DNA of 64,000 nucleotides. It comes from Mustelus asterias. Lineage: Eukaryota. The translations under genes and the position numbers were made by a program. The notes below the pieces were generated by a model that saw only the letters and a list, made by a program, of their open reading frames with translations, had not been told where the DNA came from and searched no databases. Below are positions 1,808-48,439 of this stretch, in pieces (the stretch's first letter is position 1; every line of letters starts with the position of its first letter). The stretch spans positions 558,001 to 622,000 of the forward strand of contig NW_027590224.1 in NCBI RefSeq assembly GCF_964213995.1, read 5' to 3'.

Positions 1808-1999
1808 GTGAGTTCCAGAATGTTCCACTGTTTCCATTGGGATCCTGTTTTTGGTTTATAATGTTTGTTCAATGTTGCTGAACTCCAGAACTGTCCATTT
1901 ACTGAGCTGTGAGGATGCTTCAATCCACCCTATCATTGAGCAGCGTTAACCAGTCACTTCCAGCTTGTCATCCTCTTGCTGCTGAACAGTCCCCGTGGA

Positions 2000-3378: not shown

Positions 3379-3547
3379 GAATCAAAACAGACACACGATC
3401 GATCAAAATGAAGCATCTAATGATGTCCCTTTGACAGAGGTGACCTGTTCAGGTGAAGCACGGGGCCTTGTGACAACAGCACCTGAGCATCAGGATGGAG
3501 CAGCTGGAGAACAAAACCTTCTGGGGAATGGGACTGTCCAGCACTGA
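3379..3547 (+). CDS. IgV gene copy A, cytoplasmic tail exon to stop
   Basis: Acceptor tgttctcttctag; phase 2 matches the TM exon; encodes RNQNRHTIDQ...GNGTVQH*; frame conserved in copy B. Confidence 0.8.
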
Positions 3548-14649: not shown

Positions 14650-14857
14650 AAAGGGGCTGAGGGCGGAGTCTGGACTGTGCCATTGTGGGACAGGGGGGGA
14701 GTGAGGAATAATGTCCCAGCCTCTGTCAGGAAAAGCCGGGTTAAAAGCTGCTTTTCCCCTGAAGGGATTGGAGTGAAACAACAATCCGAGTGCCGGCTCC
14801 CGGGAAACTGTCCAGCCCACACCCGGGGAGAGGGAGCAGAGAGCGGGGATGGTCAGC
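14650..14857 (+). promoter_or_regulatory. Putative promoter and ATG-terminated first exon of IgV gene copy B (ATG 14849-14851)
   Basis: GC box GGGCGGAG, ATTGG, AGTGAAAC, TCCCGGGAA, then gggATG|gtcagc. The module recurs at ~54812 and ~58830, and the last copy lies 1.2 kb upstream of the paralogous leader exon, which lacks its own ATG. Confidence 0.6.
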
Positions 14858-17800
14858 ACCGCCTCTCTGTGTGAATGGGACCGCAGCAGGTCCCGCCCCA
14901 TTTCCTGCTCAGCGTGACAGTGAATGTGTTTGTGTCTCTCCTGTTCTCAGTGTGGAGTCTCCGAGCTGGTCCCTGTGTGCGGAATGGATGGAAATGAGCT
15001 GCAGGTACTGTCAGTGTCTCAGAGCCGGGGGGAAAGAGGGGGATCTGTGTGGGTCTCTTTCCCCTGTGAGGGTGGGGGTGATCAGTGTGGGGGTCTTTCC
15101 CCTGTGAGGGTGATCGGTGAGGGTGGGGGGGATCAGTGTGGGGGTCTTTCCCCTGTGAGGGTGGGGGGATCAGTGTGGGTGGGGAGGGTGAGATGAGTAT
15201 CTGTCTGTGTCTGGAAGACAACTCGGCTGAAATTGGGTTCAATGCAGAAATGTCCTGTTACACCTGTTGAGCAGCTGCCTGGTTTTATATCCTGTATTTG
15301 CTTTTTTTTATTTGCTTATCCATTATTTAACGACTTATTGGCCACCTGGCTGAGGCTGATTCAATTCCCTCCCACGATTTAATTGTTTTATTCTCTGTTA
15401 ATGTTGAACATGACTCTCCGTCTCATACTTCTCAATATTAAATTGTGATTATCAGCCATTTCCTGTTAAAACTTCCCAGCCCTTACAACCCCGCCCCCCC
15501 CCCCCCCCCCCCCCCGCCCCCGGCTCCCCATGTTGCTAAGTATTCTATGATTCCCCGCTTCCCTAACAGCACTGTAGGTGTACCTACACCACATAAAGTG
15601 CAGTGGTTCATGAAGGCAGCTCACCACCACTTTCTCAAGGGGCAATTAGAGAAGGGCAATAAATGCTGGTCTAGCCAGTGACACCCAGAAAGAGTTCGTT
15701 CAATTTGTCGGGTTTTGTGTTGCTGAGCTGTGGGTGGGAGGAGGGAACAAGACACGTGTAGATATTTTTTCCTGGAGTGGGAATTGAGACAGTTAAAGGA
15801 TGCAGTGTTTACTGTGAGGGTCCAGTGTGATCCCGGATCTCTGGGAGTTTCAGGTCCAGCCGGGAACAGCTCCTGAGAAACAGCGATTGTTGGAGGGGGA
15901 ACCGCACAGGTTCCAGTGGAGCTGTGATCAGCAGCTACTGACTGTTGTTAATGTAACACACACTCTGGTGATTGTTTGAGGCTAAACATTGAACAGAAAA
16001 GGAAAATATTGTGGATAATGGAAATCTAAAATAAAGCTAACACACAGCAGGTCAGGCAGAGAGGAAAAGTCAGTTAATATTGCGGTGCTGATCTTTCATT
16101 CAAACACATTTCTGTTCCTCAGTTTTATGTTGCGATTTCCAGGAACACCAGATTTCTCAAAGTGCTTCAGAGTCAATGAAATACTTTCTGAAATGGACTC
16201 TCTGCTACAAGAGACATGTCCGTCTTGGTTTTCGTGCTCAAGTCCGGGAATGGGACTGATTTCGGGATCCTTGCCGAGATGGAACCAGTTTAGAGAAAGA
16301 CAGGCAATAAAGAGCTGAATCCTGGTGAAGATCAAAGAAAGTTTCCCCCGGATCCTCCTCGTTCCCCCGGGCTCTGAGACACTGACAGTTCCAGCCATTC
16401 CCTTTGTTGCGATCCCAGTTGATGTTATACCTGATAGGAAGATCCCAGAATGGATCCAGGCTGGGAGAAACTTTCCTTCACCTCCATTCAGCTCCTTATC
16501 CGGGGGAATGGATGGAAAGGAGCTGCAGGGACGGTCAGGAGGGTACAGAATGCAGCAATGTTGGGACGAGGGAGAGTGGGGGAGAGGGTAAGGGTGGGGT
16601 GAGTAGGTGAGAGGGTGGGGGAGCTGGGGGGAATGGCGGTGGGAGCAATGGGAAATGGATGGAAAAGGAGCCATGATGGTTGGAGGGTGAGATCAGTATC
16701 TGTCTCTTGTCGCCTGTGCCAGGAGGGCGATTCTATTTACATTTTGTTCAAAGCAGAAACAAACCAGTTCAGCAAGCTGCCTGGTTTTTACATCCCGGAT
16801 ACCAACAGGTTCCTTCATTTGCATTTCAGTGAATAAGAACCAGGGCCATCTGGTTGCGGCAGTTCAGTTCCTTGCCCCGTCCTATCTTAATGGTGAATCT
16901 CGATAACAGATTCCGATTATCAGCCATTTACTGTTAAGAAACCCCAGCCTTAAAAATCCCCACGGCTCCCATGTTGCCAAGTATCTCCTGATTTCCAATT
17001 TCCTGAACAGCACAGTGTGTGTCGCGACACCTCATAACTGCAGCGGTTCAAGAAGGCGGCTCACCCACCACCTTCTCAAGGGGCAATTAGAGATGCTGGT
17101 CTAGAATCATAGAAACCCTACAGTGCAGAAGGAGGCCATTCGGCCCATCGAGTCTGCACCGACCACAATCCCACCCAGGCCCTACCCCCACATATTTTAC
17201 CCGCTAATCCCTCTAACCTACGCATCCCAGGACTCTAAGGGGCAATTTTTTTAACCTGGCCAATTAACCTAACTCGCACATCTTTGGACTGTGGGAGGAA
17301 ACCGGAGCACCCGGAGGAAACCCACGCAGACACGAGGAGAATGTGCAAACTCCACACAGACAGTGACCCGAGCCGGGAATCGAACCCGGGACCCTGGAGC
17401 TGTGAAGCAGCAGTGCTAACCACTGTGGCACCGTGCCGCTAACCAGTGACACCACATCCTGTAAATGAGTTAAAACATTTTGTTCGAGGTTTCCTTGTAT
17501 ATCACATTGCATAAAAGGGAAACCCTTTTTACCATAATAGCACTTCCTGACTTGCTAAGTTAACAGCCCCTCTACTTTTCTCCACAATATCCAGACTGTT
17601 CCAGTCTCGATCCAAGTGCACATTCCAGGGAAACTTCACTTCTGACCTGGAAGGAGAGGAAGTAGAGACCAGGAGAGTCAGTCAGTACTGACCCTCCCAC
17701 AGTGCAGCCCTCCCTCAGCACTGACCCTCCCACAGTGCAGCACTCCCTCAGTACTGACCCTCCCACAGTGCAGCCCTCCCTCAGCACTGACCCTCTGACA

Positions 17801-20800
17801 GTGCAGCACTCCCTCAGTACTGACCCTCTGACAGTGTGGCACTCCCTCTGGACTGACCCTCTGACAGTGCGGCACTCCCTCAGCACTGACCCTCTGACAG
17901 TGTGGCACTCCCTCTGGACTGACCCTCTGACAGTGCGGCACTCCCTCAGCACTGACCCTCTGACAGTGTGGCACTCCCTCTGGACTGACCCTCTGACAGT
18001 GTGGCACTCCCTCAGTACTGACCCTCTAACAGTGCGGCACTCCCTCAGCTCTGACCCTCTGACTGTGCGGCACTCCCTCAGTACTGACCCTCTGACAGTG
18101 CGGCACTCCCTCGGTACTGAGCCTCTGACAGTGCGGCACTCCCTCAGTACTGACGCTCGGACTGTGCGGCACTCCCTCAGCACTGACCCTCTGACAGTGC
18201 GGCATTCCCTCAGTACTGACCATCTGACAGTGTGGCACTCTCTCAGTACTGACCCTCTGACAGTGCAGCACACCCTCTGGCAGTGCGGTGCTCCCTCAGT
18301 ACAGACCCTCTAACAGTGCGGCACTCCCTCAGTACTGACCCTTTGACAGTGCATCACTCCCTCAGTACTGACTCTCTGACAGTGCGACACTTCCTCTGTA
18401 CTGACCCTCTGACAGTGCGGCACTCCCTCAGTACTGACTCTCTGACAGTGCATCATTCCCTCAGTACTGACCCTCTGACGGTGCAGCACTCCCTCTGGAC
18501 TGACCCTCTGACAGGGCGGCACTCCCTCAGTACTGACCCTCTGACAGTGTGGCACTCCCTCAGTACTGACCCTCCCACAGTGCAGCCCTCCCTCAGCACT
18601 GACCCTCTGACAGTGCAGCACTCCCTCAGTACTGACCCTCTGACAGTGCGGCACTCCCTCAGCACTGACCCTCTGACCGTGCGGCACTCCCTCAGTACTG
18701 ACCCTCTAACAGTGCGGCACTCCCTCAGCTCTGACCCTCTGACTGTGCGGCACTCCCTCAGTACTGACCCTCTGACAGTGCGGCACTCCCTCTGTACTGA
18801 GCCTCTGACAGTGCGGCACTCCCTCAGTACTGACCCTCTGACAGTGCAGCACTCCCTCAGTACTGACCCTCTGACAGTGCAGCACTCCCTCAGTACTGAC
18901 CCTCGGACTGTGCGGCACTCCCTCAGCACTGACCCTCTGACAGTGCGGCACTCCCTCAGTACTGACCCTCGGACTGTGCGGCACTCCCTCAGTACTGACC
19001 CCCTGGCAGTGTGGCACTCCCTCAGCACTGACCCTCTGACTGTGCGGCACTCCCTCAGTACTGACCCTCTGACAGTGCGGCACTCCCTCAGTACTGACCC
19101 TCTGACAGTGCGGCACTCCCTCAGCACTGACTCTCTGACAGTGGGGCACTCCCTCTGTACTGACCCTCTGACAGTGCGGCACTCCCTCATCCTGGCCCTC
19201 TGACAGTGCAGCACCCCCCCTGACAGTGCGGTGCTCCCGCAGGACAGACCCTCTGACAGTGCGGCTCTCCCTCAGTACTGACCCTCTGACAGTACGGGAC
19301 TCACTCAGGACTGACTCTCTGACAGTGCGGCACTCCCTCAGTACTGACCCTCTGACAGTGCGGCACTCCCTCAGTACTGACCCTGTGACAGTGCGGCACT
19401 CCCTCAGTACTGACCCTGTGACAGTGCGGCACTCCCTCAGTACTGACCCTCTGACAGCGCGGCACTCCCTCAGTACTGACCCCCTCACAATGCAGCACTC
19501 CCTCAGCTCTGACCCTCTGACAGTGCGGCACTCCCTGAGTACTGACCCTCCCACAGTGCGGCACCCCCTCAGTCCTGACCCTCTGACAGTGCAGCACACC
19601 CTCTGGCAGTGCGGTGCTCCCTCAGTACAGACCCTCTAACAGTGCGGCACTCCCTCAGTACTGACCCTTTGACAGTGCATCACTCCCTCAGTACTGACTC
19701 TCTGACAGTGCGACACTTCCTCTGTACTGACCCTCTGACAGTGCGGCACTCCCTCAGTACTGACTCTCTGACAGTGCATCATTCCCTCAGTACTGACCCT
19801 CTGACGGTGCAGCACTCCCTCTGGACTGACCCTCTGACAGGGCGGCACTCCCTCAGTACTGACCCTCTGACAGTGTGGCACTCCCTCAGTACTGACCCTC
19901 TGACAGTGCAGCACTCCCTCAGTACTGACTCTCTGACAGTGCGACACTCCCTCAGCACTGACCCTCTGACAGTGTGGCACTCCCTCTGGACTGACCCTCT
20001 GACAGTGTGGCACTCCCTCAGTACTGACCCTCTGACAGAGCGGCACTCCCTCAGCTCTGACCCTCTGACTGTGCGGCACTCCCTCAGTACTGACCCTCTG
20101 ACAGTGCGGCACTCCCTCTGTACTGAGCCTCTGACAGTGCGGCACTCCCTCTGTACTGAGCCTCTGACAGTGCGGCACTCCCTCAGTACTGACCCTCGGA
20201 CTGTGCGGCACTCCCTCAGCACTGACCCTCTGACAGTGCGGCATTCCCTCAGTACTGACCCTCTGACAGTGTGGCACTCTCTCAGTACTGACCCTCTGAC
20301 AGTGCGGCACTCCCTCAGCTCTGACCCTCTGACTGTGCGGCACTCCCTCAGTACTGACCCTCGGACTGTGCGGCACTTCCTCAGTACTGACCCTCGGACT
20401 GTGCGGCACTCCCTCAGTACTGACCCTCGGACTGTGCGGCACTCCCTCAGTACTGACCCTCTGACAGGGTGGCACTCCCTCTGTACTGAGCCTCTGACAG
20501 TGCGGCACTCCCTCAGTACTGAGCCTCTGACAGTGCGGCACTCCCTCAGTACTGACCCTCTGACAGTGCGGTGCTCCCTCAGTACTGACCCTCTGACAGT
20601 GCGGCACTCCCTCAGTACTGACCCTCTCACAGTGCAGCTCACCCTGAGTGCTGACCCTCTGACAGTGTGGCACTCCCTCTGGACTGACCCTCTGACAGTG
20701 CGGCACTCTCTCTGTACTGACACTCTGACAGTGCGGCACTCCCTCAGTACTGACCTTCTGACAGTGCAGCACTCCCTCAGTACTGACCCTCTGACAGTGC

Positions 20801-23800
20801 GGCGCTCCCTCAGTACTGACCCTCTGACAGTGCGGCACTCCCTCAGTACTGACCCTCTGACAGTGCGGCACTCCCTCAGTACTGACCCTCTGACAGTGCG
20901 GCACTCCCTCAGTGCTGAACCTCTGACAGTGCAGCGCTCACTCAGCACTGACCCTGCCACAGTGCAGCACTCACTCAGCACTGACCCTCTGACAGTGCAG
21001 CACTCCCTCTGACAGTGCGGTGCTCCCTAAGTACAGACCCTCTAACAGTGCGGCACTCCCTCTGTACTGACTCTCTGACAGTGCAGCACTCCCTCAGTAC
21101 TGACCCTCTGACAGTGCAGCACTCCCTCAGTACTGACCCTCTGACAGTGCGGCACTCCCTCAGCACTGACCCTCTGACAGTGCAGCATTCCCTCAGCATT
21201 GACCCTCTGACAGTGCGGCACTCCCTCAGTACTGACCCTCTGACAGTGCGGCACTCCCTCAGTACTGACCCTCTGACAGTGCGGCACTCCCTCAGTACTG
21301 AGCATCTGACAGTGCAGCACTCCCTCAGCACTGACCCTCTGACAGTGCAGCATTCCCTCAGTACTGACCCTCTGACAGTGCGGCACTCCCTCAGTACTGA
21401 CCCCCTGACAGTGCGGCACTCCCTCTGTACTGAACCTCTGACAGTGCGGTGCTCCCTCAGTACAGACTCTCTGACAGTGCGGCACTCTCTCAGCACTGAC
21501 CCTCTGACAGTGCGGCACTCCCTCAGTACTGACCCTCTCACAATGCAGCACTCCCTCAGTGCTGACCCTCTGTCAATGTAGCAATTCCTCAATACTGACC
21601 CTCTGACAGTGCAGCACTCCCTCAATATCAACCGTCTAGCAGTGCGGCACTCTCTCAGTTCTGACCCTCTGACAGTGCAGTACCCACTAAGTACTGGCCC
21701 TCTGACAGTGCGGCGCTGCCTCAGTACTGACCCTCTGACAATGCAGCACTCCCTCAATGCTGACCCTCTGACAGTGCAGCACTCCCTCAGCACTGACTCT
21801 CTGACAGTGGGGCACTCTCTCATCCTGGCCCTCTGACAGTGCAGCACCCCCCCTGACAGTGCGGTGCTCCCTCAGGACTGACCCTCTGACAGTGCGGCAC
21901 TCCCTCAGTACTGACCCTCTGACAGTGCAGCACTCCCTCAGCACTGACCCTCTGACAGTGCGGCACTCCCTCATCCTGGCCCTCTGACAGTGCAGCACCC
22001 CCCCTGACAGTGCGGTGCTCCCTCAGTACTGACCCTCTGACAGTGCGGCACTCACTCAGGACTGACCCTCTGACAGTGCGGCACTCACTCAGGACTGACT
22101 CTCTGACAGTGCGGCACTCCCTCAGTACTGACCCTGTGACAGTGCGGCACTCCCTCAGTACTGACCCTGTGACAGTGCGGCACTCCCTCAGCACTGACCC
22201 TCTGACAGTGCGGCACTCCCTCAGTAGTGACCCTCTGACAGTGCGGCACTCCCTCAGTACTGACCCTCTGACAGCGCGGCACTCCCTCAGTCCTGACCCT
22301 CTCACAATGCAGCACTCCCTCAGCTCTGACCCTCTGACAGTGCGGCACTCCCTGAGTACTGACCCTCCCACAGTGCATCATTCCCTCAGTACTGACCCTC
22401 TGACGGTGCAGCACTCCCTCTGGACTGACCCTCTGACAGTGCGGCACTCCCTCAGTACTGACCTTCTGACAGTGCAGCACTCCCTCAGTACTGACCCTCT
22501 GACAGTGCGGCATTCCCTCAGTACTGACTCTCTGACAGTGCGGCACTCCCTCAGTACTGACCTTCTGACAGTGCGGCACTCCCTCAGTACTGACCCTCTG
22601 ACAGTGCGGCACTCCCTCAGCACTGACCCTCTGACAGTGTTGCACTCCCTCTGGACTGACCCTCTGACAGTGCGGGACTCCCTCAGTACTGACCCTCTGA
22701 CAGTGCGGCACTCCCTCAGCACTGACCCTCTGACAGTGTGGCACTCCCTCTGGACTGACCCTCTGACAGTGCGGCACTCCCTCAGCACTGACCCTCTGAC
22801 AGTGTGGCACTCCCTCTGGACTGACCCTCTGACAGTGTGGCACTCCCTCAGTACTGACCCTCTGACAGTGCGGCACTCCCTCAGGTCTGACCCTCTGACA
22901 GTGCGGCACTCCCTCAGTACTGACCCTCTGACAGTGCGGCACTCACTCTGTACTGAGCCTCTGACAGTGCGGCACTCCCTCAGTACTGACCCTCGGACTG
23001 TGCGGCACTCCCTCAGCACTGACCCTCTGACAGTGCGGCACTCCCTCAGTACTGACCCTCTGACAGTGTGGCACTCCCTCAGTACTGACCCTCTGACAGT
23101 GCGGCACTCCCTCAGTACTGACCCTCTGACAGTGCGGCACTCCCTCAGTACTGACCCTCTGACAGTACGGCACTCACTCAGTACTGACCCTCTGACAGTG
23201 CGGCACTCACTCAGGACTGACTCTCTGACAGTGCGGCACTCCCTCAGTACTGACCCTGTGACAGTGCGGCACTCCCTCAGTACTGACCCTGTGACAGTGC
23301 GGCACTCCCTCAGCACTGACCCTCTGACAGTGCGGCACTCCCTCAGTACTGACCCTCTGACAGTGCGGCACTCCCTCAGTACTGACCCTCTGACAGCGCG
23401 GCACTCCCTCAGTCCTGACCCTCTCACAATGCAGCACTCCCTCAGCTCTGACCCTCTGACAGTGCGGCACTCCCTGAGTACTGACCCTCCCACAGTGCAT
23501 CATTCCCTCAGTACTGACCCTCTGACGGTGCAGCACTCCCTCTGGACTGACCCTCTGACAGTGCGGCACTCCCTCAGTACTGACCTTCTGACAGTGCAGC
23601 ACTCCCTCAGTACTGACCCTCTGACAGTGCGGCATTCCCTCAGTACTGACCCTCTCACAATGCAGCACTCCCTCAGCTCTGACCCTCTGACAGTGCGGCA
23701 CTCCCTGAGTACTGACCCTCCCACAGTGCATCATTCCCTCAGTACTGACCCTCTGACGGTGCAGCACTCCCTCAGTACTGACCCTCTGACAGTGCGGCAC

Positions 23801-26800
23801 TCCCTCAGTACTGACCTTCTGACAGTGCAGCACTCCCTCAGTACTGACTCTCTGACAGTGCGGCACTCCCTCAGTACTGACCTTCTGACAGTGCGGCACT
23901 CCCTCAGTACTGACCCTCTGACAGTGCGGCACTCCCTCAGCACTGACCCTCTGACAGTGTTGCACTCCCTCTGGACTGACCCTCTGACAGTGCGGGACTC
24001 CCTCAGTACTGACCCTCTGACAGTGCGGCACTCCCTCAGCACTGACCCTCTGACAGTGTGGCACTCCCTCTGGACTGACCCTCTGACAGTGCGGCACTCC
24101 CTCAGCACTGACCCTCTGACAGTGTGGCACTCCCTCTGGACTGACCCTCTGACAGTGTGGCACTCCCTCAGTACTGACCCTCTGACAGTGCGGCACTCCC
24201 TCAGGTCTGACCCTCTGACAGTGCGGCACTCCCTCAGTACTGACCCTCTGACAGTGCGGCACTCACTCTGTACTGAGCCTCTGACAGTGCGGCACTCCCT
24301 CAGTACTGACCCTCGGACTGTGCGGCACTCCCTCAGCACTGACCCTCTGACAGTGCGGCACTCCCTCAATGCTGACCCTCTGACAGTGCAGCACTCCCTC
24401 AGCACTGACCCTCTGACAGTGCGGCACTCCCTCATCCTGGCCCTCTGACAGTGCAGCACCCCCCCTGACAGTGCGGTGCTCCCTCAGTACTGACCCTCTG
24501 ACAGTGCGGCACTCCCTCAGTACTGACCCTCTGACAGTACGGCACTCACTCAGTACTGACCCTCTGACAGTGCGGCACTCACTCAGGACTGACTCTCTGA
24601 CAGTGCGGCACTCCCTCAGTACTGACCCTGTGACAGTGCGGCACTCCCTCAGTACTGACCCTGTGACAGTGCGGCACTCCCTCAGTACTGACCCTCTGAC
24701 AGCGCGGCACTCCCTCAGTCCTGACCCTCTCACAATGCAGCACTCCCTCAGCTCTGACCCTCTGACAGTGCGGCACTCCCTGAGTACTGACCCTCCCACA
24801 GTGCATCATTCCCTCAGTACTGACCCTCTGACGGTGCAGCACTCCCTCTGGACTGACCCTCTGACAGTGCGGCACTCCCTCAGTACTGACCCTCTGACAG
24901 TGTGGCACTCCCTCAGTACTGACCCTCTGACAGTGCAGCACTCCCTCAGGACTGACTCTCTGACAGTGCGGCACTCCCTCTGTACTGACCTTCTGACAGT
25001 GCAGCACTCCCTCAGTACTGACCCTCTGACAGTGCGGCATTCCCTCAGTACTGACTCTCTGACAGTGCGGCACTCCCTCAGTACTGACCTTCTGACAGTG
25101 CGGCACTCCCTCAGTACTGACCCTCTGACAGTGCGGCACTCCCTCAGCACTGACCCTCTGACAGTGTTGCACTCCCTCTGGACTGACCCTCTGACAGTGC
25201 GGGACTCCCTCAGTACTGACCCTCTGACAGTGCGGCACTCCCTCAGCACTGACCCTCTGACAGTGTGGCACTCCCTCTGGACTGACCCTCTGACAGTGCG
25301 GCACTCCCTCAGCACTGACCCTCTGACAGTGTGGCACTCCCTCTGGACTGACCCTCTGACAGTGTGGCACTCCCTCAGTACTGACCCTCTGACAGTGCGG
25401 CACTCCCTCAGCTCTGACCCTCTGACAGTGCGGCACTCCCTCAGTACTGACCCTCTGACAGTGCGGCACTCACTCTGTACTGAGCCTCTGACAGTGCGGC
25501 ACTCCCTCAGTACTGACCCTCGGACTGTGCGGCACTCCCTCAGCACTGACCCTCTGACAGTGCGGCACTCCCTCAGTACTGACCCTCTGACAGTGTGGCA
25601 CTCCCTCAGTACTGACCCTCTGACAGTGCGGCACTCCCTCAGTACTGACCCTCTGACAGTGCGGCACTCCCTCAGCTCTGACCCTCTGACTGTGTGGCAC
25701 TCCCTCAGTACTGACCCTCGGACTGTGCGGCATTCCCTCAGTACTGGCCCTCTGACTGTGTGGCACTCCCTCAGCACTGACCCTCGGACTGTGCGGCACT
25801 CCCTCAGTACTGACCCTCTGACAGTGTGGCACTCCCTCTGTACTGAGCCTCTGACAGTGCGGCACTCCCTCAGTACTGACCCTCTGACAGCGCGGCACTC
25901 CCTCAGTCCTGACCCTCTCACAATGCAGCACTCCCTCAGCTCTGACCCTCTGACAGTGCGGCACTCCCTGAGTACTGACCCTCCCACAGTGCATCATTCC
26001 CTCAGTACTGACCCTCTGACGGTGCAGCACTCCCTCTGGACTGACCCTCTGACAGTGCGGCACTCCCTCAGTACTGACCCTCTGACAGTGTGGCACTCCC
26101 TCAGTACTGACCCTCTGACAGTGCAGCACTCCCTCAGTACTGACCCTCTGACAGTGCGGCACTCCCTCTGGACTGACCCTCTGACAGTGTGGCACTCCCT
26201 CTGGACTGACCCTCTGACAGTGCGGCACTCCCTCAGCACTGACCCTCTGACAGTGTGGCACTCCCTCTGGACTGACCCTCTGACAGTGTGGCACTCCCTC
26301 AGTACTGACCCTCTGACAGTGCGGCACTCCCTCAGGTCTGACCCTCTGACAGTGCGGCACTCCCTCAGTACTGACCCTCTGACAGTGCGGCACTCCCTCT
26401 GTACTGAGCCTCTGACAGTGCGGCACTCCCTCAGTACTGACCCTCGGACTGCGCGGCACTCCCTCAGTACTGACCCTCGGACTGTGCGGCACTCCCTCAG
26501 TACTGACCCTCTGACAGTGCGGCGCTCCCTCAGTACTGACCCTCTGACAGTGCGGCACTCCCTCAGTACTGACCCTCTGACAGTGCGGCACTCCCTCAGT
26601 TTTGACCCTCTGACAGTGCAGCGCTCACTGAGCATTGACCCTCCCACAGTGCGGCACTCCCTCAGCACTGACCCTCGGACTGTGCGACACTCCCTCAGTA
26701 CTGACCGTCTGACAGTGCGGCACTCACTCTGTACTGAGCCTCTGACAGTGCGGCACTCCCTCAGTCCTGACCCTCCCACTGTGCGGCACCCCCTCAGTGC

Positions 26801-29800: not shown

Positions 29801-32800
29801 CACTGACTCTCTGACAGTGCGGCACTCCCTCAGCACTGACCCTCTGACAGTGCGGCGCTCCCTCAGTACTGACCCTCTGGCAGTACGGAACTCCCTCAGT
29901 ACTGACCCTCTGACAGTGCAGCACTCCCTCAGTACTGACCCTCTGACAGTGCAGCACTCCCTCAGTACTGACCCTCTGACAGTGCGGTGCTCCCTCTGAC
30001 ACTGAGCCACTCCCTCAGCACTGACCCTCTGACAGTGCGGCACTCTCTCAGCACTGACCCTCTGACAGTGCGGCACTCCCTCAGTACTGACCCTCTGACA
30101 GTGTGGCACTCCCTCAGTACTGACCCTCTGACAGTGCGGCACTCTCTCAGTACTGACCCTCTGACAGTGCGGCACTCCCTCAGTTCTGACCCTCTGACAG
30201 TGCGGCACTCCCTCAGTACTGATCCTCTGACAGTGCGGCACTCCCTCAGTACTGACCCTCTCACAATGCAGCACTCCTTCAGCTCTGACCCTCTGACAGT
30301 GCGGCACTCCCTGAGTACTGACCCTCCCACAGTGCGGCACCCCCTCAGTCCTGACCCTCTGACAGTGCAGCACACCCTCTGGCAGTGCGGTGCTCCCTCA
30401 GTACAGACCCTCTAACAGTGCGGCACTCCCTCAGTACTGACCCTTTGACAGTGCAGCACTCCCTCTGACAGTGCGGTGCTCCCTGAGTACAGACTCTCTG
30501 ACAGTGCGGCACTCTCTCAGCACAGACCCTCTCACAGTGCAGCTCAACCTGAGTACTGACCCTCTGACAGTGTGGCACTTCCTCTGGACTGACCCTCTGA
30601 CAGTGCGGCACTCTCTCTGTACTGATCCTCTGACAGTACGGCACTCACTCAGTACTGACCCTCTGACAGTGCGGCACTCCCTCAGTAATGACCCTCTGAC
30701 AGTGCGGCACTCCCTCAGTACTGACCCTCTGACATTGCGGCACTCCCTCAGTACTGACCCTCTGACAGTGCGGCACTCACTCAGGACTGATTCTCTGACA
30801 GTGCAGCACTCCCTCAGTACTGACCCTCTGACAGTGCAGTTCTCTCTCAGTACTGACCCTCTGACAGTGCGGCATTCCCTCAGTACTGATCCTCTGACAG
30901 TACGGCACTCACTCAGTACTGACCCTCTGACAGTGCGGCACTCACTCAGGACTGACCCTCTGACAGTGCAGTTCTCTCTCAGTACTGACCCTCTGACAGT
31001 GCGGCACCCCCTCAGTCCTGACCCTCTGACAGTGCAGCACACCCTCTGGCAGTGCGGTGCCCCCTCAGTACAGACCCTCTAACAGTGCGGCACTCCCTCA
31101 GTACTGACCCTTTGACAGTGCGGCACTCCCTCAGTACTGACCCTCTGACAGTGTGGCACTCCCTCAGTACTGACCCTCTGACAGTGCAGCACTCCCTCAG
31201 TACTGACTCTCTGACAGTGCGGCACTCCCTCAGTACTGACCTTCTGACAGTGCGGCACTCCCTCAGTACTGACCCTCGGACTGGGCGGCACTCCCTCAGC
31301 ACTGACCCTCTGACAGTGCGGCACTCCCTCAGTACTGACCCTCTGACAGTGCGGCACTCCCTCAGCTCTGACCCTCGGACTGTGCGGCACTCCCTCAGTA
31401 CTGACCCTCGGACTGTGCGGCACTCCCTCAGTACTGACCCTCTGACAATGTGGCACTCCCTCTGTACTGAGCCTCTGACAGTGCGGCACTCCCTCAGCAC
31501 TGACCCTCTGACAGTGCGGTGCTCCCTCAGTACTGACCCTCGGACTGTGCGGCACTCCCTCGGCACTGACCCTCTGACAGTGCGGCACTCCCTCAGTACT
31601 GACCCTCGGACTGTGCGGCACTCCCTCAGTACTGACCCTCTGACAGTGCGGCACTCCCTCAGCTCTGACCCTCTAACTGTGCGGCACTCCCTCAGTACTG
31701 ACCCTCGGACTGTGCGGCACTCCCTCAGTACGGACCCTCGGACTGTGCAGTACTACCTCAGTACTGACCCTCTGACAGTGCAGCACTCCCTCAGTACTGA
31801 CCCTCTGACAGTGCGGCACTCCCTCAGTACTGACCCTCTGACAGTGCGGCACTCCCTCAGTACTGACCCTCTGACAGTGCGGCACTCCCTCAGTACTGAC
31901 CCTCTGACAGTGCGGCACTCCCTCAGTACTGACCCTCTGACAGTGCAGCGCTCACTCAGCACTGACCCTCCCACAGTGCGGCACCCCCTCAGTCCTGACC
32001 CTCTGACAGTGCGGTGCTCCCTCAGTACAGACCCTCTAACAGTGCGGCACTCACTCTGTACTGACTCTCTGACAGTGCGGCACTTCCTCTGTACTGACCC
32101 TCTGACTGTGCGGCACTCCCTCAGTCCTGACCCTCCCACTGTGCGGCACCCCCTCAGTGCTGACCCTCTGACAGTGCGGCACTCCCTCAGTACTGACCCT
32201 CTGACAGTCTGGCACTCCCTCTGTACTGACCCTCTGACAGTGCAGCACTCCCTCAGTACTGACCCTCTGACAGTGCAGCACTCCCTCAGTACTGACCCTC
32301 TGACAGTGCAGCATTCCCTCAGTACTGACCCTCTGACAGTGCAGCATTCCCTCAGTACTGACCCTCTGACAGTCTGGCACTCTCTCAGCACTGACCCTCT
32401 CACAGTGCAGCTCACCCTGAGTACTGACCCTCTGACAGTGTGGCACTTCCTCTGGACTGACCCTCTGACAGTGCGGCACTCTCTCTGTACTGATCCTCTG
32501 ACAGTGCGGCACTCCCTCAGCACTGACCCTCTGACAGTGCGGCACTGCCTCAGTACTGACCCTCTGACAGTGCAGCACTCCCTCAGCACTGACCCTCTGA
32601 CAGTGCGGCACTCCCTCAGTACTGATCCTCTGACAGTGCGGCACTCCCTCAGCACTGACCCTCTGACAGTGCGGCACTCCCTCAGCACTGACCCTCTGAC
32701 AGTGCGGCACTCTCTCTGTACTGACCCTCTGGCAGTGCAGCACTCCCTCAGTGCTGACCCTCTGTCAATGTAGCAATTCCTCAATACTGACCCTCTGACA

Positions 32801-35800
32801 GTGTAGCACTCCCTCAATATCAACCGTCTAGCAGTGCGGCACTCCCTCAGCACTGACCCTCTGACAGTGCGGCACTCCCTCAGCACTGACCCTCTGACAG
32901 TGCGGCACTCCCTCAGTACTGACCCTCTGACAGTGCAGCACTCCCTCAGTACTGACCCTCTGACAGTGGGGCACTCTCTCAGTTCTGACCCTCTGACAGT
33001 GCAGCACTCCCTCAGTACTGACCCTCTGACAGTGCGGCACTCCCTTAGTACTGACCCTCTGACAGTGCAGCACTCCCTCAGTACTGAACCTCTGACAGTG
33101 CAGCACTCCCTCAGCACTGACCCTCTGACAGTGGGGCACTCCCTCTGTACTGACCCTCTCAAAATACGGCATTCCCTCAGTACTGACCCTCTGACAGTGC
33201 AGCACTCCCTCAGTACTGACCCTCTGACAATGCGGCACTCCCTCAGTACTGACCCTCTGACAGTGCGGCTTTTCCTCAGCTCTGACCCTCTGACAATGCA
33301 TCTCTCCCTCAGTCCTGGCCCTCTGACAGTGCAGCACCCCCCTGACAGTGCGGTGCTCCCTCAGGACAGACCCTCTGACAGTGCGGCTCTCCCTCAGTAC
33401 TGACCCTCTGACAGTATGGCACTCACTCAGTACTGACCCTCTGACAGTGCGGCACTCACTCAGGACTGACTCTCTGATAGTGCAGCACTCCCTCAGTACT
33501 GACCCTCTGGCGCTGCAGTTCTCTCTCAGTACTGACCCTCTGACAGTGCGGCACTCCCTCAGTACTGACCCTCTGACAGTGCGGCACTCCCTCAGTACTG
33601 ACCCTCTGACAGTGCGGCACTCCCTCAGTCCTGACCCTCTCACAATGCAGCACTCCTTCAGCTCTGACCCTCTGACAGTGCGGCACTCCCTCAGTACTGA
33701 CCCTCTGACAGTGCAGCACACCCTCTGGCAGTGCGGTGCTCCCTCAGTACAGACCCTCTGACAGTGCAGCACTCCCTCAGTACTGACCCTTTGACAGTGC
33801 ATCACTCCCTCAGTACTGACCCTCTGGCAGTCCGGCACTCCCTCAGTACTGACCCTCTGACAGTGCGGCACTCCCTCAGTACTGACCCTCTGACAGTGCA
33901 GCACTCCCTCTGACAGTGCAGCACTCCCTCTGACAGTGCGGTGCTCCCTCTGACACTGAGCCACTCCCTCAGCACTGACCCTCTGACAGTGCGGCACTCT
34001 CTCAGCACTGACCCTCTGACAGTGCGGCACTCCCTCAGTACTGACCCTCTGACAGTGTGGCACTCCCTCAGTACTGACCCTCTGACAGTGCGGCACTCTC
34101 TCAGTACTGACCCTCTGACAGTGCGGCACTCCCTCAGTACTGACCCTCTGACAGTGCGGCACTCCCTCAGTACTGATCCTCTGACAGTGCGGCACTCCCT
34201 CAGTCCTGACCCTCTCACAATGCAGCACTCCTTCAGCTCTGACCCTCTGACAGTGCGGCACTCCCTCAGTACAGACCCTCTAACAGTGCGGCACTCCCTC
34301 AGTACTGACCCTTTGACAGTGCATCATTCCCTCAGTACTGACCCTCTGGCAGTCCGGCACTCCCTCAGTACTGACCCTCTGACAGTGCGGCACTCCCTCA
34401 GTACTGACCCTCTGACAGTGCAGCACTCCCTCTGACAGTGCAGCACTCCCTCTGACAGTGCGGTGCTCCCTCTGACACTGAGCCACTCCCTCAGCACTGA
34501 CCCTCTGACAGTGCGGCACTCTCTCAGCACTGACCCTCTGACAGTGCGGCACTCTCTCAGTACTGACCCTCTGACAGTGCGGCACTCCCTCAGTACTGAC
34601 CCTCTGACAGTGCGGCACTCCCTCAGTACTGATCCTCTGACAGTGCGGCACTCCCTCAGTACTGACCCTCTCACAATGCAGCACTCCTTCAGCTCTGACC
34701 CTCTGACAGTGCGGCACTCCCTGAGTACTGACCCTCCCACAGTGCGGCACCCCCTCAGTCCTGACCCTCTGACAGTGCAGCACACCCTCTGGCAGTGCGG
34801 TGCTCCCTCAGTACAGACCCTCTAACAGTGCGGCACTCCCTCAGTACTGACCCTTTGTCAGTGCATCACTCCCTCAGTACTGACTCTCTGACAGTGCGGC
34901 ACTCCCTCAGTACTGACCCTCTGACAGTGCAGCACTCCCTCAGCACTGACCCTCTGACAGTGCATCACTCCCTCAGTACTGACTCTCTGACAGTGCGACA
35001 CTCCCTCAGTACTGACCCTCTGACAGTGCGGCACTCCCTCAGTACTGACTCTCTGACAGTGCGGCACTCCCTCAGTACTGATCCTCTGACAGTGCGGCAC
35101 TCCCTCAGTACTGACCCTCTCACAATGCAGCACTCCTTCAGCTCTGACCCTCTGACAGTGCGGCACTCCCTCAGTACTGACCCTCTGACAGTGCGGCACT
35201 CCCTCAGCACTGACCCTCTGACAGTGCGGCACTCCCTCAGCACTGACCCTCTGACAGTGTGGCACTCCCTCAGTACTGACCCTCTGACAGTGCGGCACTC
35301 TCTCAGTACTGACCCTCTGACAGTGCAGCACTCCCTCAGTCCTGACCCTCTGACAGTGCGGCAGTTCCTCAGTACTGACCCTCTAACAATGCGGCACTCC
35401 CTCAGTACTGACCCTCTGACAGTGCGGCACTCCCTCAGCACTCACCCTCTGACATTAAACTCTCAGTCTCAGGGTTTATAGATCTTTAACAGCCCTTCAG
35501 TATGACTGGGCTTAAAAGCCTTACACAGTGACCTTTCCCCATCGTGCCCTGGCAGCAGCTGCTCCAAGCTTGAGTGTGTCCCTCAGCACATAATCCTGGG
35601 CAGGAGGACAATTCTTTGCACTGGAAGTTTTGGGCAGTCCAATCATCAATCTGAGCAGGAAGTGAATCAGTTGTAAAGGGGGTAACTGTGTTTTCTTGTT
35701 GCAGGGACACACCTTCCACAAACTCCTGCTGCTGCTGCTGCTGCTCAGTGTTGTTGCTGCTGTTTCAGGTAAGAGCTGTGACTGCTGGAACATTTCAGCT

Positions 35801-38800
35801 CTGATCAAAGGGTGGGGGGATCAGGAATACATCTTGCTTTAAGCTGCTGTGTGAACTGTAAGTGGAGCCAATGAGGGATTGGGCCCCGTAGCTTCACACC
35901 ACACACAATGATCATCAGAGCTGAAAGGAAGGCAGCTAATGTCTTCACATTAACCCCTGTGAGGTGAACAGTGGGATCTGGACACCGAGCAACACTCAGT
36001 GACACTGGGATGGGTGCCTGGGTGACATTGGAATGATGACTGGGTGACACTGGAATGGGTGACAGGGATCAAGTGGAACTGGGATGAGATCCTGAGCTCT
36101 GGGATCAGGAGTCTGGGACCGCACTGGGATCAAATAGAGCTGGGAATTATCTAGGAGCGTGGGGAGTCGGGTCATCAGGTTGGTGAATCCATTTGGTTTT
36201 CGGGTCAGTTTTCAGCTCCTGAGTTCCACCTCACATTGTCCACCCCCCAGTCTGTGATTTTTCTCCCAAGGGGAGGTGACCAATATCCTGATGTGTTCTC
36301 CCAGCATGTGGACAAATGGAAAACATGTGATTGAAAGTGCTGTCCAGCTGCTCTGTGCTTCCAAATATCCAGCACAAGCTGGGTTTAGTTGAAGGCCCTC
36401 AATGCCTGAGCTTTAACCTTCCCACACAAATGAAAGCAGTGAGGTATTGATCAGTGCTTCTTGTAAATCAAGCATGGCAGTGTAACCATGTGAAGCTTGG
36501 GATGTAATGTACCAGCAGGGAGGTTATATCTGTGGATAAATACTTTCAATCTTTTCCAGGTGACTCGCCTGTCCCAGTTTCTGGGTTCCTTGCGGAGCAG
36601 GTTGTGCTGCCTTGTACCTACAACGGGAATGTCCCAGTCTCAGATTTACAGGTAATCTGGGGGACACCCAAACATAAATTTTTGCACAAGTTTGTCAATG
36701 GAAACGATGATTTGAGGGAACAAGACCCACGGTTCAGAAACAGAACAAAGCTGTTCAGAGATCAACTGGAACAAGGAAACTGGTCAGTTCTGCTCTCGGA
36801 CCTCAGGGAGTCAGACCAGAGCGAGTACGAGTGTCAGATTTACAAGAGGACGAGTGCAGGATATTATTGGGAGCAATTTGATCTCGTCTATCTCTCTGTA
36901 ACAGGTGAGAGGTTTCTGTTTCAGAAATTCTGTATTTAATCCCTGATTTTATGGGTTCAGTCATGCAGTGGTTATGTTATGAAACAAATAATCCCGAGAA
37001 TGTGGGAGAATCCCGAGGGCGGCACGGTAGCACAGTGGTTAGCACTGCTGCTTCACAGCTCCAGGGTCCTGGGTTCGATTCCCGGCTCGGGTCACTGTCT
37101 GTGTGGAGTTTGCACATTCTCCTCGTGTCTGCGTGGGTTTCCTCCGGGTGCTCCGGTTTCCTCCCACAGTCCAAAGATGTGCGGGTTAGGTTGATTGGCT
37201 GTGCTAAAATTGCCCCTTAGTGTCCTGAGATGCATAGGTTAGAGGGATTAGTGAGTACAATATATGGGGGTAGGGCCTGGGTGGGATTGTGGTCGGTGCA
37301 GACTCGATGGGCCGAATGGCCTCTTTCTGTACTGTAGGGTTTCTATTCTATTCTATTCTAATGTGAGTTCAAATCCCACCATGGCACTTTCAGAATTTAA
37401 ATTCAGTTTATGAAATAAAAATCTGGAAATATAAAGTTGGTCCTAATAAAAGTGACCAGGAAACTGTTGGATTATAAAACCCCGACTGGTTCACTAATGT
37501 CCCTTTAGGGAAGGAAACCTGCCATCGTGCAGAGGGATCTGGGTGTTCTAGTGCTTGAATCACAAAAGGCTGATATACAGGTACAACAAGTAATTAGCAA
37601 TACTAATGGACCGTTATTGTTTGCTGTGAGGGGACTTGGATAAAGTAATGAGGTTATGTTTCAATTGTACGGGGCATTGGTGAGACCACATCGAGAGTAT
37701 TGTGTACAGTATTGGTCTCCTTATTTAAGGAAATATGTAACAGTGTTTGAAGCGGTTCAGAGAAGGTTTACCAGACTAATCCCAGGAAGGGGCTGGGTGT
37801 CTTATGAGGAAAGTTTGGAGAGGTTAGGTCTGTATCCACCAGAGTTCAGAAGAGTAAGAGGCGACTTGATGGAAACCTTTAAGATCCTGAGGGGTATCGA
37901 CAGGGTGGATGTGGAGAGGATGTTCCCTCTTGTAGGAGAATCTAGAACCAGGGATCACTGATTAAAAATTAGGGCTCTCACTTAACATGGAGGTGAGGAT
38001 AATTTCTTCTCTCTTGGTAGGTTGTGAGTTTCTGGAACTCTCTGCCTCAAATGGCAGTGGATACAGTGTCTTTGAATATATTTAAGGCAGAGTGAGATAG
38101 ATTCTTGATTAACGAGGGTGAAAGGTTAATAAGGGGATGGGGGGGTGAAAGGTTATCAGGGGTCGGCGGGAATGTGTGGTTGAAGTTAGTCAGGTGAGCC
38201 ATGATCTTATTGAATGGTGGAGCAGGCTCGAGGGGCCGCCTCCTGCTCCCAATTCATATGTTTGTATCGATGTACGTGTGTACCCAGTCTGGTCTATATG
38301 TGACTCCAGTCCCACATTAACCTGGGTGACTTTTAACTGCCCTCTGACTTGCTCAAACACTTCAATCAGTTTGTATCAAACCACTGGACAGAGAAACCAG
38401 AATAAAACTGAAGGGATCACTGGCTGTGACCCAGGTATTGAGTCAGAATGTTGGGGTGCAGGAGGTGGGGTCTGTAACACCTCTCAGGCAGCCTTGACAA
38501 GACCCAGTGCACTTACCTTGTTCCCAGTAGGCCCAGGATCCTGTGGGGATTCTCTCCACGGGGATGTAGGCTGCTGGGAATGATCCTGCTCAGGGGAACT
38601 CTGGAAAACTTCCATTCTACCCATCACAGTTAATGCAATCCTGTTGGACTTTTCACTCTGCCGACCCTGTTCCTGATCCTTCCTGATCAGTTTGAGTCGA
38701 GTCTCGTTGCTCCCTGGATGTTTTTCCCTAAAGCCCGATAGTCTTTGACCATTTCTGTAGTTTGTGTCACACACAATACTAAACATATTATGTTTTCTTT

Positions 38801-41800
38801 AGAGCGACTTCCTACACCTGGACCGAACACACCTGTACCAGGTAAATCTGTTTCTAAACTACTGCATGTGTTTTCAGCGTGTTGCATCATTCTGGATAGA
38901 CAGCGAGTAACACTGGAAGGTTTGAAAGTAAAGTTTATTAGTTTATTTATTAAAAGTTATTTATTAGTCACAGGTAAGGCTTACATTAACACTGCAATGA
39001 AGTTACTGAGAAATTCCCCAAGTCGCCACACTCCGGTGCAAGTTCGGGTCAATGCACCCTAACCAGCACGTCTTCCAGACTGTGGGAGGAAACCGGAGCA
39101 CCCGGAGGAAACCCACACAGACACAGGGAGAACTTGCAAACTCCACACAGACAGTGACCCAAGCCAGGAATCGAACCCGGGTCCCTGGCGCTGTGAGGCA
39201 GCAGTGCTAATCACTGTGCTACTGTGCCACCCAAGAATGATTGTGTGAGAATGAGTGATGTGAGTCACTGTTACCTGTAACTGGTCCTGCAACCACTGGG
39301 ATTTGTTATTTCTGTTTCTGAGTCTCACCTTCCTGTCCCTCAGATACAGAACTGTGAGGATTCCTGCTTCCCACGAGCATTAGTGTTTCTGGAATTCTGT
39401 GTGGAAAGTCTGGGTACAATTTTACCCAAACCCACCTGTTGGGAAACTGATGGGATTGGATGTAACACTGGGTGAAGTCAGTGGAGAGAAATATTTACCC
39501 GGGTGTAATCCGGCATTCCACACAATCCCGTGGCCTTTTCCGATTGGTAAATTATTTTAAAATCTCCTGCTAGTTCAGCGTGCTGTTGGGTTGAATTAGA
39601 GGGAGGCTGCTGCTACTCAGTGTCCAGTTATCTCTATTGGAAAGCATGTATCGATCACATTGTGGGGCAGTGTGTGTGTGCAAGGAGCTGTGGGGTGACC
39701 TGGTGTATGTGTGATTATCGGTGTCTAAACTCCCACATCCCTCCAGGACTAGAATTAACCAGGGATCTGTCTGTACTGGGGATGGTTCTGAAACACTCGG
39801 TGCTGAAGGTCTCTGCTGTTAGTTTTGTGAGTGTGTCCCAGTCTGTTAATGGCTTCGTTCTGTCTCTAGGTCCTGGACTCCCGGATAGAGCAAGAGTTGG
39901 ATTGGGAATCGGAATTCTTGTTGCTGTTTTTGTTGTTGCTGGAATTGGGATTTACATATTCCGAAAGCGACAAAGACGGTGAGTTCCAGAATGTTCCACT
40001 GTTTCCATTGGGATCCTGTTTTTGGTTTATAATGTTTGTTCAATGTTGCTGAACTCCAGAACTGTCCATTTACTGAGCTGTGAGGATGCTTCAATCCACC
40101 CTATCATTGAGCAGCGTTAACCAGTCACTTCCAGCTTGTCATCCTTTTGCTGCTGAACAGTCCCCGTGGATTGGAAAGGAGCGAATATTATCCCACTGGG
40201 AGAACCAGTGGATGAGGAATGTATCTGGGATTTCAGAAGGTATTTGATAAGGTGCCACACAATAGGTTGTTCCGCAAGACATGGGCTCAGGGGATTGGGG
40301 GTAATGTAGCATGGATTGAGGATTGGTGAGTGGACAGAAACAGAGGAGGGACAATGGGTGATTTTTGGTTGGCAGGATGTAACTGGTGCTGCCGGGATCA
40401 GTGCTGGAGCCTCAGCTAATCACAATCCATGTCAATGATTGTGATCAGGGGAGAGAGTGCGATGTGTCCAAGTTTACTGACGATAGAAAGTGGGAGAGTA
40501 AGCGGTGAGGAAGATACAGAGATATTAACAGGTCAGGTGACTGGGCACGGAGGTGGAACAGGGAATATAATGTGGGTAGTGTGAATTATCCACGTTGGTG
40601 GGAAGAATGGAAAAGGAGAATATTCAGAGTGAGAGACTGGGAAATGTGGGCATTGTGAAGGTTTTGAGCGTTCATGTCCAATGTAAATGAATCAAAGTTA
40701 ACCTGGTCTCCTTACCCAAGGAAGAGGATGTTCCTAATGTGGAGGAGGTGTGACACATTGCTTCCCTAATGGTTCCTGAGCTGTGTCTGTGCTGTTAGGA
40801 GAACCGGCCAATATTCCCAGGAGTCTGGAAGAATGAGAGGTGATCTCATTGAAACGCATAATATTCCCAGTGGCCTTGACAGGGTCACCCTCCTCCCTCC
40901 ACAGACGGACACACTCACACACCCCTTTCCCCACACGCAGATAGCGAATGAAACTATTGGTCACAGTCTGAGGACAAGGGGTCGAACATTTTGCCTCAGC
41001 TCATTGGCTCCTGAAACCCTCATCAATAACGTAATTTATTCTAGTCTGAACTATTCTGACATCACCCCCGTCCTCATTGACTGGTTCAATTCTAACATTC
41101 CCATTCTAGTTTCCACATTCCCCTCTGACCTCACCCCTTCCTCATCTCTGTAACTGAGCCAACCACGCAATCCTCCGCACTCCAATTCTGTCCACTTGGT
41201 GCGTACCTCAGTCCCCATCGCTCCACCATTGGTGGCCGTGCTTTCAGCTGCCTGGGGCTCATGTCCTATAGCGAAGGAAATCTACCATCCTTACCTGATC
41301 TGGCCTACATGTCACTCCAGACCCACAGCAATGGTTGACTCTTAATTACCATTAGGGATGGACAATAAATGCAGGCCCAGCCTGTGACACCCCTATCCTA
41401 CAAACTAAATAATAACTCCGGAATTCTCTGCCTCTCCCTCTGTTTTTCCCCCTGTCTCAAATTCCGAGTATTCTTTGATCTCTCCTCTGAAGCATTTCTG
41501 GATTTCCTCTAAAGGTGCTATGTAAATGCAGTACGTTGTAATTCAATCTCCTCCTGCACTTTTCAGACCTCCCCCTTAACCCGGACATCAGAGGATTCAG
41601 TCACTGGGAAAGCCATCTCGGATTTCCTTGTCTCACTCAATATCCACATCTCCGTGCTCACCGCCTATCCCCACACACACCCCTCACAGTGGCAGCAGGA
41701 ACTATTGCAGGGTTCTCTAACTCTATCCTCTGACCCTCCCTCTGTGGGTCAGCACATCTCCTGTGGACTGTCCAGCTCTTGCCCGTTGCCTCCCCGATAA

Positions 41801-42151
41801 GCCTCCTCTCCACTCTGTGCTCCATCACCGTGCAGCTCCTGTGACCCAGTTTCCAGCGGCCGTTGGTACCCAGGATATTGAGTGGAATTTAATGGGTCTG
41901 TGCTCCTGAACGGCTCCTTTACTCACCTGGCCAAAGTGTTGGATTCTTTTCATTCTGAACTCTGCTGTTTGTTCTCTTCCAGGAAACAAAACAGACACAC
42001 GATCGATCAAAATGAAGCATCTAACGGTGTCCCTTTGACAGAGGTGACCTGTTCAGGTGAAGCACGGGGCCTTCTGACAACAGCACCTGAGCATCAGGAT
42101 GGAGCGTCTGGAGAACAAAACCTTCTGGGGAATGGGACTGTCCAGCACTGA
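14849..42151 (+). CDS. B7/butyrophilin-superfamily-like single-IgV type I membrane protein, copy B (6 coding exons, 242 aa)
   Basis: Join 14849-14851, 35705-35768, 36560-36904, 38803-38841, 39870-39978, 41983-42151 = 729 nt, open throughout, with GT-AG introns of phase 0,1,1,1,2. Architecture: signal peptide, IgV, stalk, TM, tail. Exon 1 is the least certain part. Confidence 0.75.
17104..17438 (-). mobile_element. HE1-like V-SINE, full length
   Basis: tRNA head, V core, CR1-like 3' tail ending tttctatgattct. Confidence 0.92.
17682..35454 (+). repeat. 33-bp satellite array (cactccctcagtactgaccctctgacagtgcgg), ~17.8 kb, ~540 units
   Basis: Continuous tandem periodicity of 33 with occasional 19-bp deletion units and higher-order block duplications. 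Confidence 0.98.
35500..35640 (-). mobile_element. L1/Tx1-clade LINE ORF2 C-terminal fragment
   Basis: Minus translation ends QDYVLRDTLKLGAAAARARWGKVTV*, which resembles the Tx1-type ORF2 terminus as I recall it; not checked against a database. Confidence 0.55.
35705..35768 (+). CDS. Copy B signal-peptide exon (GHTFHKLLLLLLLLSVVAAVS)
   Basis: Acceptor ttcttgttgcag, donor CAG|gtaaga; hydrophobic leader; phase 0-1; paralog at 60231-60291. Confidence 0.88.
36560..36904 (+). CDS. Copy B IgV domain exon (B7/BTN-type V-set)
   Basis: Acceptor ttttccag, donor CAG|gtgaga, phase 1-1. Motifs VVLPC, VIW, EQDPRFRNRTKLF, GNWSVLLSDLRESDQSEYEC; N-glycosylation sequons NRT and NWS. Confidence 0.95.
37017..37359 (+). 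mobile_element. HE1-like V-SINE, full length
   Basis: ggcacggtagcacagtggttagc...ggttcgattcc head, V core, (ttcta)n tail. Confidence 0.92.
37527..38255 (+). mobile_element. CR1 LINE 3' fragment
   Basis: ORF 37656..37961 (LVRPHREYCVQYWSP...RGDLMETFKI) and CR1 3' UTR; the same 3' end is at window positions 1-85. Confidence 0.88.
38803..38841 (+). CDS. Copy B Pro-rich stalk exon (ERLPTPGPNTPVP)
   Basis: Acceptor ttttctttag, 39 nt, donor CAG|gtaaat; phase 1-1. Confidence 0.8.
39870..39978 (+). CDS. Copy B transmembrane exon
   Basis: Encodes GPGLPDRARVGLGIGILVAVFVVAGIGIYIFRKRQR; acceptor tctctag, donor gtgagt; phase 1-2. Confidence 0.9.
41983..42151 (+). CDS. Copy B cytoplasmic tail exon to stop
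   Basis: Acceptor gttctcttccag, phase 2; encodes RKQNRHTIDQ...GNGTVQH*. Confidence 0.8.
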
Positions 42152-48400: not shown

Positions 48401-48439
48401 AAGGACAACCGGATCAACGGAAAGGAAACCGGAAAGAAG

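Follow-up and report, generated by a model that had tools for sequence, protein, structure and literature searches.

Candidate immune ligands in sharks: a tandemly amplified family with B7-type V domains and no IgC exon in Mustelus asterias

What is encoded by the gene that recurs head-to-tail in a 64,000-nucleotide stretch of the Mustelus asterias genome (assembly GCF_964213995.1, contig NW_027590224.1, positions 558,001 to 622,000; "the window," whose first letter is position 1 below), and why do its copies differ so strongly in the exon for their immunoglobulin variable-type (IgV, or V) domain? An earlier note, made from the sequence alone, had proposed a lineage-specific, possibly dimeric family of single-IgV immune ligands of B7 or butyrophilin (BTN) type. 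The one copy lying wholly in the window, copy B, is a real gene, and its V exon matches known domains beyond chance, because it scores 36.2 bits against Pfam V-set (cut-off 26) and its best matches in the Protein Data Bank (PDB) are CD276 (9e-16) and B7-H4 (5e-14). The features of copy B are:

14849..14851, plus strand: ATG then GT, in frame, used as the start by the earlier note; repeated upstream of most copies
14984..15004, plus strand: probable end of the first coding exon, MDGNELQ, phase 0, GT donor
17682..35454, plus strand: 33-bp satellite array, about 17.8 kb, within intron 1; copies D and E carry this satellite in intron 1 too
35705..35768, plus strand: signal-peptide exon with a poly-Leu core, spliced in contigs
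36560..36904, plus strand: IgV exon, B7-type, with the two Ig cysteines and the sequons NRT and NWS
38803..38841, plus strand: Pro/Thr-rich stalk exon, 39 nt, phase 1-1, lacking in the V-V copies D and F
39870..39978, plus strand: transmembrane (TM) exon with GLGIG and a basic stop-transfer sequence
41983..42151, plus strand: cytoplasmic tail exon and stop, without tyrosine, with a conserved EQNLL motif

The five exons from 35705 to 42151 have AG and GT ends and compatible phases throughout, and from the ATG at 14849 they give the 242 residues assembled in the earlier note, all of whose named motifs are present. The assembly fits; its start is probably another one. MDGNELQ at 14984-15004 enters in the same phase, gives 248 residues, and is preferred because the same N-terminus recurs in stored models of other sharks (Scyliorhinus, Carcharodon, Heterodontus), while the ATG at 14849-14851 is used by none of the stored RefSeq models and is possibly an upstream or alternative donor. 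From the signal exon onward, copy B equals the stored RefSeq models P0016 and P0052, and a V-domain-identical protein is the RefSeq model labelled Mustelus asterias LOC144485972. At 41568 a possible further exon, duplicated along with the gene, yielded no domain match, is absent from stored models and was treated as intron. The products would be spliced type I membrane proteins consisting of a signal peptide, a B7-type IgV, a proline stalk, one TM helix and a tail without tyrosine motifs.

Splicing was followed in contigs of four coded public runs (at most three samples, their RNA status a guess with none on record) over 35560-37000; loose contig ends were matched to exons by eye, the joins covered being those at the V boundaries, and 11 further loose ends lay outside those shown. 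Contig cover falls mostly on the V exon and little on intron, depth and gaps not being used as evidence. The signal exon is joined to the V exon in run X1, and to an acceptor 21 nt upstream of V, as in copies A and C, in runs X5 and X6; the V exon is joined to a D/F-type TM exon in X1 (three contigs) and X5, and to the stalk exon in X2, a diverged relative. Spliced forms of the kind that the earlier note had called for thus occur on both sides of the V exon.

Could an IgC exon have been overlooked? A C-domain profile built from four B7-type C domains recovered both C exons on another contig, C20 (one of them in the profile, the other at 43 bits), and gave no match above 10 bits either in the 110 family proteins or around family genes; on C192, the contig of copies A to D, it found only a Siglec C2 exon. 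No C-type Ig exon occurred among the contig loose ends shown (X1, X2, X5, X6), no B30.2 motif was found on C192 or on C858, the contig of copies E and F, and V-set alone lies above the Pfam cut-off in P0016. Profile, contig joins, Pfam and motif scan agree with the original remark that neither IgC nor B30.2 is evident. The N-terminal B7-type IgV of the B7 family is present; the IgC that follows it in that family is lacking from the shark V-only proteins.

The V domain was also matched by MOG (4e-10), PD-L1 (2e-8) and BTN1A1 in the PDB, and its AlphaFold model (pLDDT 88) has B7-H4 and PD-L1 as top Foldseek matches (TM 0.74-0.77); aligned by fold, it is 32% identical to B7-H4. The earlier note had placed the domain broadly among B7, BTN, MOG and chicken BG proteins; the B7 part of this is upheld by PDB and Foldseek, and the evidence supports a closest resemblance to B7-H4 (VTCN1), B7-H3 (CD276) and PD-L1 rather than to BTN or BG, though the approximately unbiased (AU) test does not reject BTN kinship (p=0.087). 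These three proteins share with the family a type I topology and a tail without signalling tyrosines; unlike them, the shark family lacks IgC, has a proline stalk or a further V instead, and is multi-copy and variable. It is not the CD276 ortholog, because the best CD276 match of the genome sits on contig C70, where the V exon reaches 1e-62 against human CD276, as against only 9e-16 for that of copy B. No one-to-one known ortholog was found. GxxxG is the one basis for the suggested dimer, the copy B ectodomain having two cysteines only and none free; a V-domain homodimer prediction scored 0.00, which is evidence in neither direction.

In V-domain trees the family forms one clade (99/98; 99/99), and eight V exons on contig C8, called BTN-like from their sequence look and the tree, form another (95/96). 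These trees bear on the possibility, improbable in the balance of evidence, that the proteins are BTN-, BG- or Skint-like ligands selecting or activating gamma-delta or other unconventional T cells. The PDB matches include MOG and BTN1A1, the Atlas BTN clusters score 0.95, and the AU test does not reject a grouping of the family with the C8 cluster. Chicken BG genes, as described in PMC8813856, are single-V, tandem and copy-number variable, and a single V with a TM and no IgC, as in BG and MOG, is what 79 of the 110 family records show; butyrophilins and Skint likewise have a related V domain and form multigene clusters. The family nevertheless lacks the IgC and B30.2 of butyrophilins and Skint, as well as a heptad tail and a free ectodomain cysteine for a disulfide dimer, the BTN-like V exons of this genome are a clade of their own on a different contig, and selected BG variation is reported in the tail (PMC8813856), whereas the shark family varies in the V domain.

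How widely is the family distributed? Searches of 90% protein clusters found it across five orders of sharks, in 12 species (Mustelus, two Scyliorhinus, Carcharodon, Cetorhinus, Rhincodon, Stegostoma, two Chiloscyllium, Hemiscyllium, Heterodontus and Pristiophorus), so that the assignment to a cartilaginous fish is supported and "lineage-specific" has to give way to shark-wide; no ray or chimaera member was listed in these word-limited searches, by which absence is not proven. Full-length family domains score at least 134 bits in a HMMER search, with the best outsider at 69. In otophysan fish, V-only B7-like families (P0214, P0220) likewise have V or V-V without C in these records and carry automatic names only; they differ in reaching at most 64 bits with the profile and in grouping with other shark B7-type genes and not with this family. 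The 110 family protein records, counting isoforms, comprise 79 with one V, 29 with two and two with three, so that "single-IgV" describes most members and not all. A tail free of tyrosine is likewise true of copy B and not of the family, 13 of whose 53 distinct tails contain one, though none of the 53 TM and tail sequences has an ITIM, ITSM or ITAM; GxxxG, noted as GLGIG in copy B, recurs in 48 of them and an EQNLL-like dileucine motif in 32. Tails are of about 60 residues or less in most members, no heptads were seen, and long- and short-tailed copies coexist. The family is known to databases by wrong automatic names only (CD276-, MOG- and ICOSL-like, CD86, SCN4B, JAML). In the full-text literature, mostly that outside subscription, neither a description of the family nor a mention of its locus identifiers was found, and none of the family accessions queried was present in the supplements of PMC12841164 and PMC13262535.

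Self-comparison of the window, in which the 3' half of the gene is repeated at 1-5.3 kb and its 5' part at 54.8-62.1 kb, located the three head-to-tail copies of which the earlier note had seen parts: B whole, the 3' exons of A, and the first and signal exons of C. For A and C the V exon, with an open frame, falls just outside, and the stalk, TM and short tail of C do so too. The parts inside are:

630..3547, plus strand: copy A stalk (630-668), TM (1696-1807) and tail (3379-3547) exons; the window begins about 1.3-1.6 kb after its V exon
56868..56909, plus strand: copy C, alternative coding exon further upstream, MRDPPQPSVQSVSK, used in stored RefSeq isoforms
59165..60291, plus strand: copy C first exon (59165-59185) and signal exon (60231-60291)

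Among 29 genome matches, nine are close (82-100%), all on C192 and C858. C192 carries copies A, B and C on its plus strand, each V-stalk-TM-tail with the tail of C short, copy D (V-V-TM-short tail) on its minus strand, and remnants of broken copies around 369 kb, 398 kb and 414-424 kb; C858 carries copy E, which is B-like, copy F (V-V) and two extra tail exons. The tandem amplification first suggested is supported, and broken copies accompany it. In a masked comparison C858 is 98-99.8% identical to C192 in blocks, and is either a second haplotype with one extra unit or a further duplicate.

What distinguishes the copies is the V exon, which is an island of divergence among near-identical flanking DNA. 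Between copies A and B, 31 of 345 positions differ in the V exon (9.0%) and four of 1898 in the next intron (0.2%), with 20 of 1027 in the second intron after V; B and E differ at 7/345 in V as against 4/1896 in the next intron, and D and F at 14/345 and 8/345 in their V exons as against 2/321 in an intron. Seven distinct V exons entered the recombination and pN/pS tests, copy G being left out for its altered V exon start and copy C as equal to A. Among 51 informative sites, 31% of pairs fail the four-gamete test, and neighbouring sites fail it less (0.16 against 0.31 when shuffled, p=2e-4); the V exons are patchworks of shared segments, a signal to which clustered substitutions could add. Unequal crossing-over would alter copy number and stack V exons (V, V-V and V-V-V are seen), while exchange between copies would be the likely means by which introns, stalk and TM are homogenised and distinct V-exon segments persist and recombine.

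Where in the domain does the variation fall? Among 72 distinct shark V domains, of 141 found, mean entropy is 2.03 bits at 14 positions of the GFCC' face and 0.53 at 11 of the opposite face (p=8e-5), faces being assigned by hand from strand alternation in the model and not from coordinates; the CC' and FG loops reach 2.1-2.3 bits and the core 0.43, and the canonical cysteines are kept in 69-71 of the 72. Variation thus appears, in the modelled domain, to be concentrated on the predicted receptor-binding face. The comparison of the dN/dS type that the earlier note had proposed, made as pN/pS across copies, has the variable face above the remainder of the exon (0.79 against 0.50) and an overall value of 0.69, means never exceeding 1. 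Several V subtypes group across species in a large tree made by quick search only.

Are these differences mere by-products of a repeat-rich, recombining region in which most copies are redundant or decaying? The broken copies, premature stops in some tail exons, a sequence that is about 16% tandem repeat with many retroelements, and a pN/pS below 1 would all be expected. Neutral turnover, however, would not leave introns alike beside a V exon that is up to 40-fold more diverged, would not gather the changes of 72 shark domains on a single face, and does not fit with V subtypes that group across species, and it is very improbable as the whole explanation.

The same chassis also carries a second ectodomain, referred to here as domain X. 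In records from Hemiscyllium, Cetorhinus and Scyliorhinus, a different 90-residue ectodomain is found on the family TM and tail (and signal, where modelled), and a Rhincodon model carries both domain X and the B7-type V; one signal, TM and tail chassis, as judged from these predicted proteins, serves both. The single X exon of this genome is:

C192:11658-11927, minus strand: X exon (L089/L104), upstream of a family TM exon at 8369-8477

Domain X lacks the canonical Cys-Trp-Cys, matches a titin Ig domain at 1.7e-4 and V-set clusters at 0.91, and reaches at best 0.056 with Pfam; its model is poor (pLDDT 57), with fold matches all of Ig V-type and none reaching E 0.001. It looks like a degenerate, Ig-like domain.

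The neighbours found near the family are Siglec-like: Siglec/MAG-like genes lie on the minus strand of C192 at 237-303 kb, interleaved with the family cluster, and 20 of the 43 matches to a Siglec-like V exon lie at 0.12-0.76 Mb on C20, with 59-68% identity. The Siglec/MAG-like stretch of C20 spans 0.12-0.98 Mb, with about 20 close V paralogs at the contig start. Just past it are two ordinary V+C B7-type genes on the plus strand (1059470-1064200 and 1132757-1137186), and the V exon of the second, at 1.13 Mb, is the best non-family genome match to the query (4e-11); it also groups, weakly, as sister of the family in two trees out of three, one at 88/43 with a long branch and the other a quick search. 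It is plausible, though unproven, that C192 adjoins C20, to judge from shared Siglec paralogs, and that the family derives from such a V+C neighbour: a B7-type gene beside the Siglec cluster would then have lost its C exon in a shark ancestor.

Siglec and CEACAM genes are linked at human 19q13, and the Siglec-like setting raises the possibility of CEACAM-like adhesion or pathogen-docking proteins, the V face being driven apart by binding microbes and short-tailed copies serving as decoys. Conversion that homogenises introns and spares Ig exons is reported for a CEACAM paralog (PMC7042247); the coexistence of long and short tails and a degenerate Ig-like domain without Cys-Trp-Cys on the same chassis would fit as well. 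Unlike CEACAM, however, the family has a B7-type V with the canonical disulfide, and none of its 53 distinct tails belongs to an ITIM/ITAM paired form; this explanation is unlikely, if worth keeping in view.

B7 ligands bind their receptors through the GFCC' face. With variable residues on that predicted face, each copy would show a different binding surface on a constant scaffold, and strong V-domain variation beside near-identical DNA suggests fast-changing immune ligands. In the bamboo-shark atlas, LOC122544203, a family member, is recorded for 47.7% of endothelial cells and 40.3% of other cells (PMC11372145, one row of a supplement). The chances seem even that this is a broadly expressed, IgC-less family of B7-type ligands, which would work like a B7 ligand yet falls outside B7 membership as defined by IgC. 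Its proteins would probably be displayed at the cell surface as ligands of an immune receptor; having no ITIM or ITAM, they would signal through the receptor of the partner cell, most likely as widely displayed self or checkpoint markers, and the conserved EQNLL motif may govern their sorting.

Several points weigh against a B7-type ligand family of this kind. The expression breadth comes from one supplementary row on one diverged member in another species; the RNA status of the runs is a guess, and the contig joins are those at the V boundaries. The AU test is compatible with BTN kinship and the tree leaves the parent unfixed, the sister placement of the C20 gene being just 88/43 on a long branch and lost in another tree, and the adjacency of C192 and C20 being drawn from shared Siglec paralogs only. 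The face assignment is hand-made, and with pN/pS below 1 and synonymous divergence raised on the variable face, positive selection is not shown.

A more ambitious variant would make this a variable ligand system of the sharks' own: a constant chassis taking either segment-recombined, B7-derived V exons or a degenerate Ig exon of unrelated kind, forming a single complex with a large cluster of paired Siglec-like receptors and marking individual self for NK-like or myeloid cells independently of MHC. It is quite improbable.

If the B7-type ligand reading is right, what would follow? Sharks have extra CD28-family receptors whose ligands are unassigned (PMC11599192), and B7 paralog numbers have been described as generally steady across jawed vertebrates except in two named groups (PMC13262535): a shark-wide, IgC-less, rapidly varying B7-type family offers concrete candidate ligands for those receptors. 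It also sets right the misleading automatic labels under which such genes enter shark expression studies, and the contrast between exon and intron provides a direct test of how diversity is kept up in a homogenising gene array. New here are the V-exon divergence island, the interleaving with Siglec-like genes that have paralogs beside two V+C genes, and the second Ig-like domain on the same chassis.

Some further features concern the array itself. The start-codon exon has been amplified as a 51/52-bp minisatellite (window 55166-55324 and 59162-59468; C192 548552-549290), few of whose units keep a GT donor; the copy C first exon is the initial 52-bp unit and the sole one there with a donor. An insertion of about 3-4 kb directly preceding the V exon is common to copies A and C (window 62133 onward; C192 553200-556375); it provides the new acceptor 21 nt upstream and adds seven residues, the form present in X5 and X6. 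RefSeq isoforms P0052-P0061 mix exons of copies A, B and C, by either mis-mapping between near-identical copies or real read-through splicing. Linkage to PRDM7/9, hinted at by a fused Cetorhinus model, was discarded, no match being found on C192 or C858; nor were tRNA genes found on these two contigs. A tandem array at C192:28000-162000 has units of about 15-18.5 kb at 98-99.9% identity with a LINE-like frame within, and no gene was recognised in it. Two broken endogenous-retrovirus pol/env-like remnants lie in opposite orientation upstream of copy C (47889-49672, plus; 58157-58711, minus), and the stored C858 gene model P0062 fuses pol/env-like sequence to a family gene. Between broken family copies, an endogenous retrovirus-like element at C192:425327-432127 (plus strand) has open frames of 366, 1205 and 574 codons.

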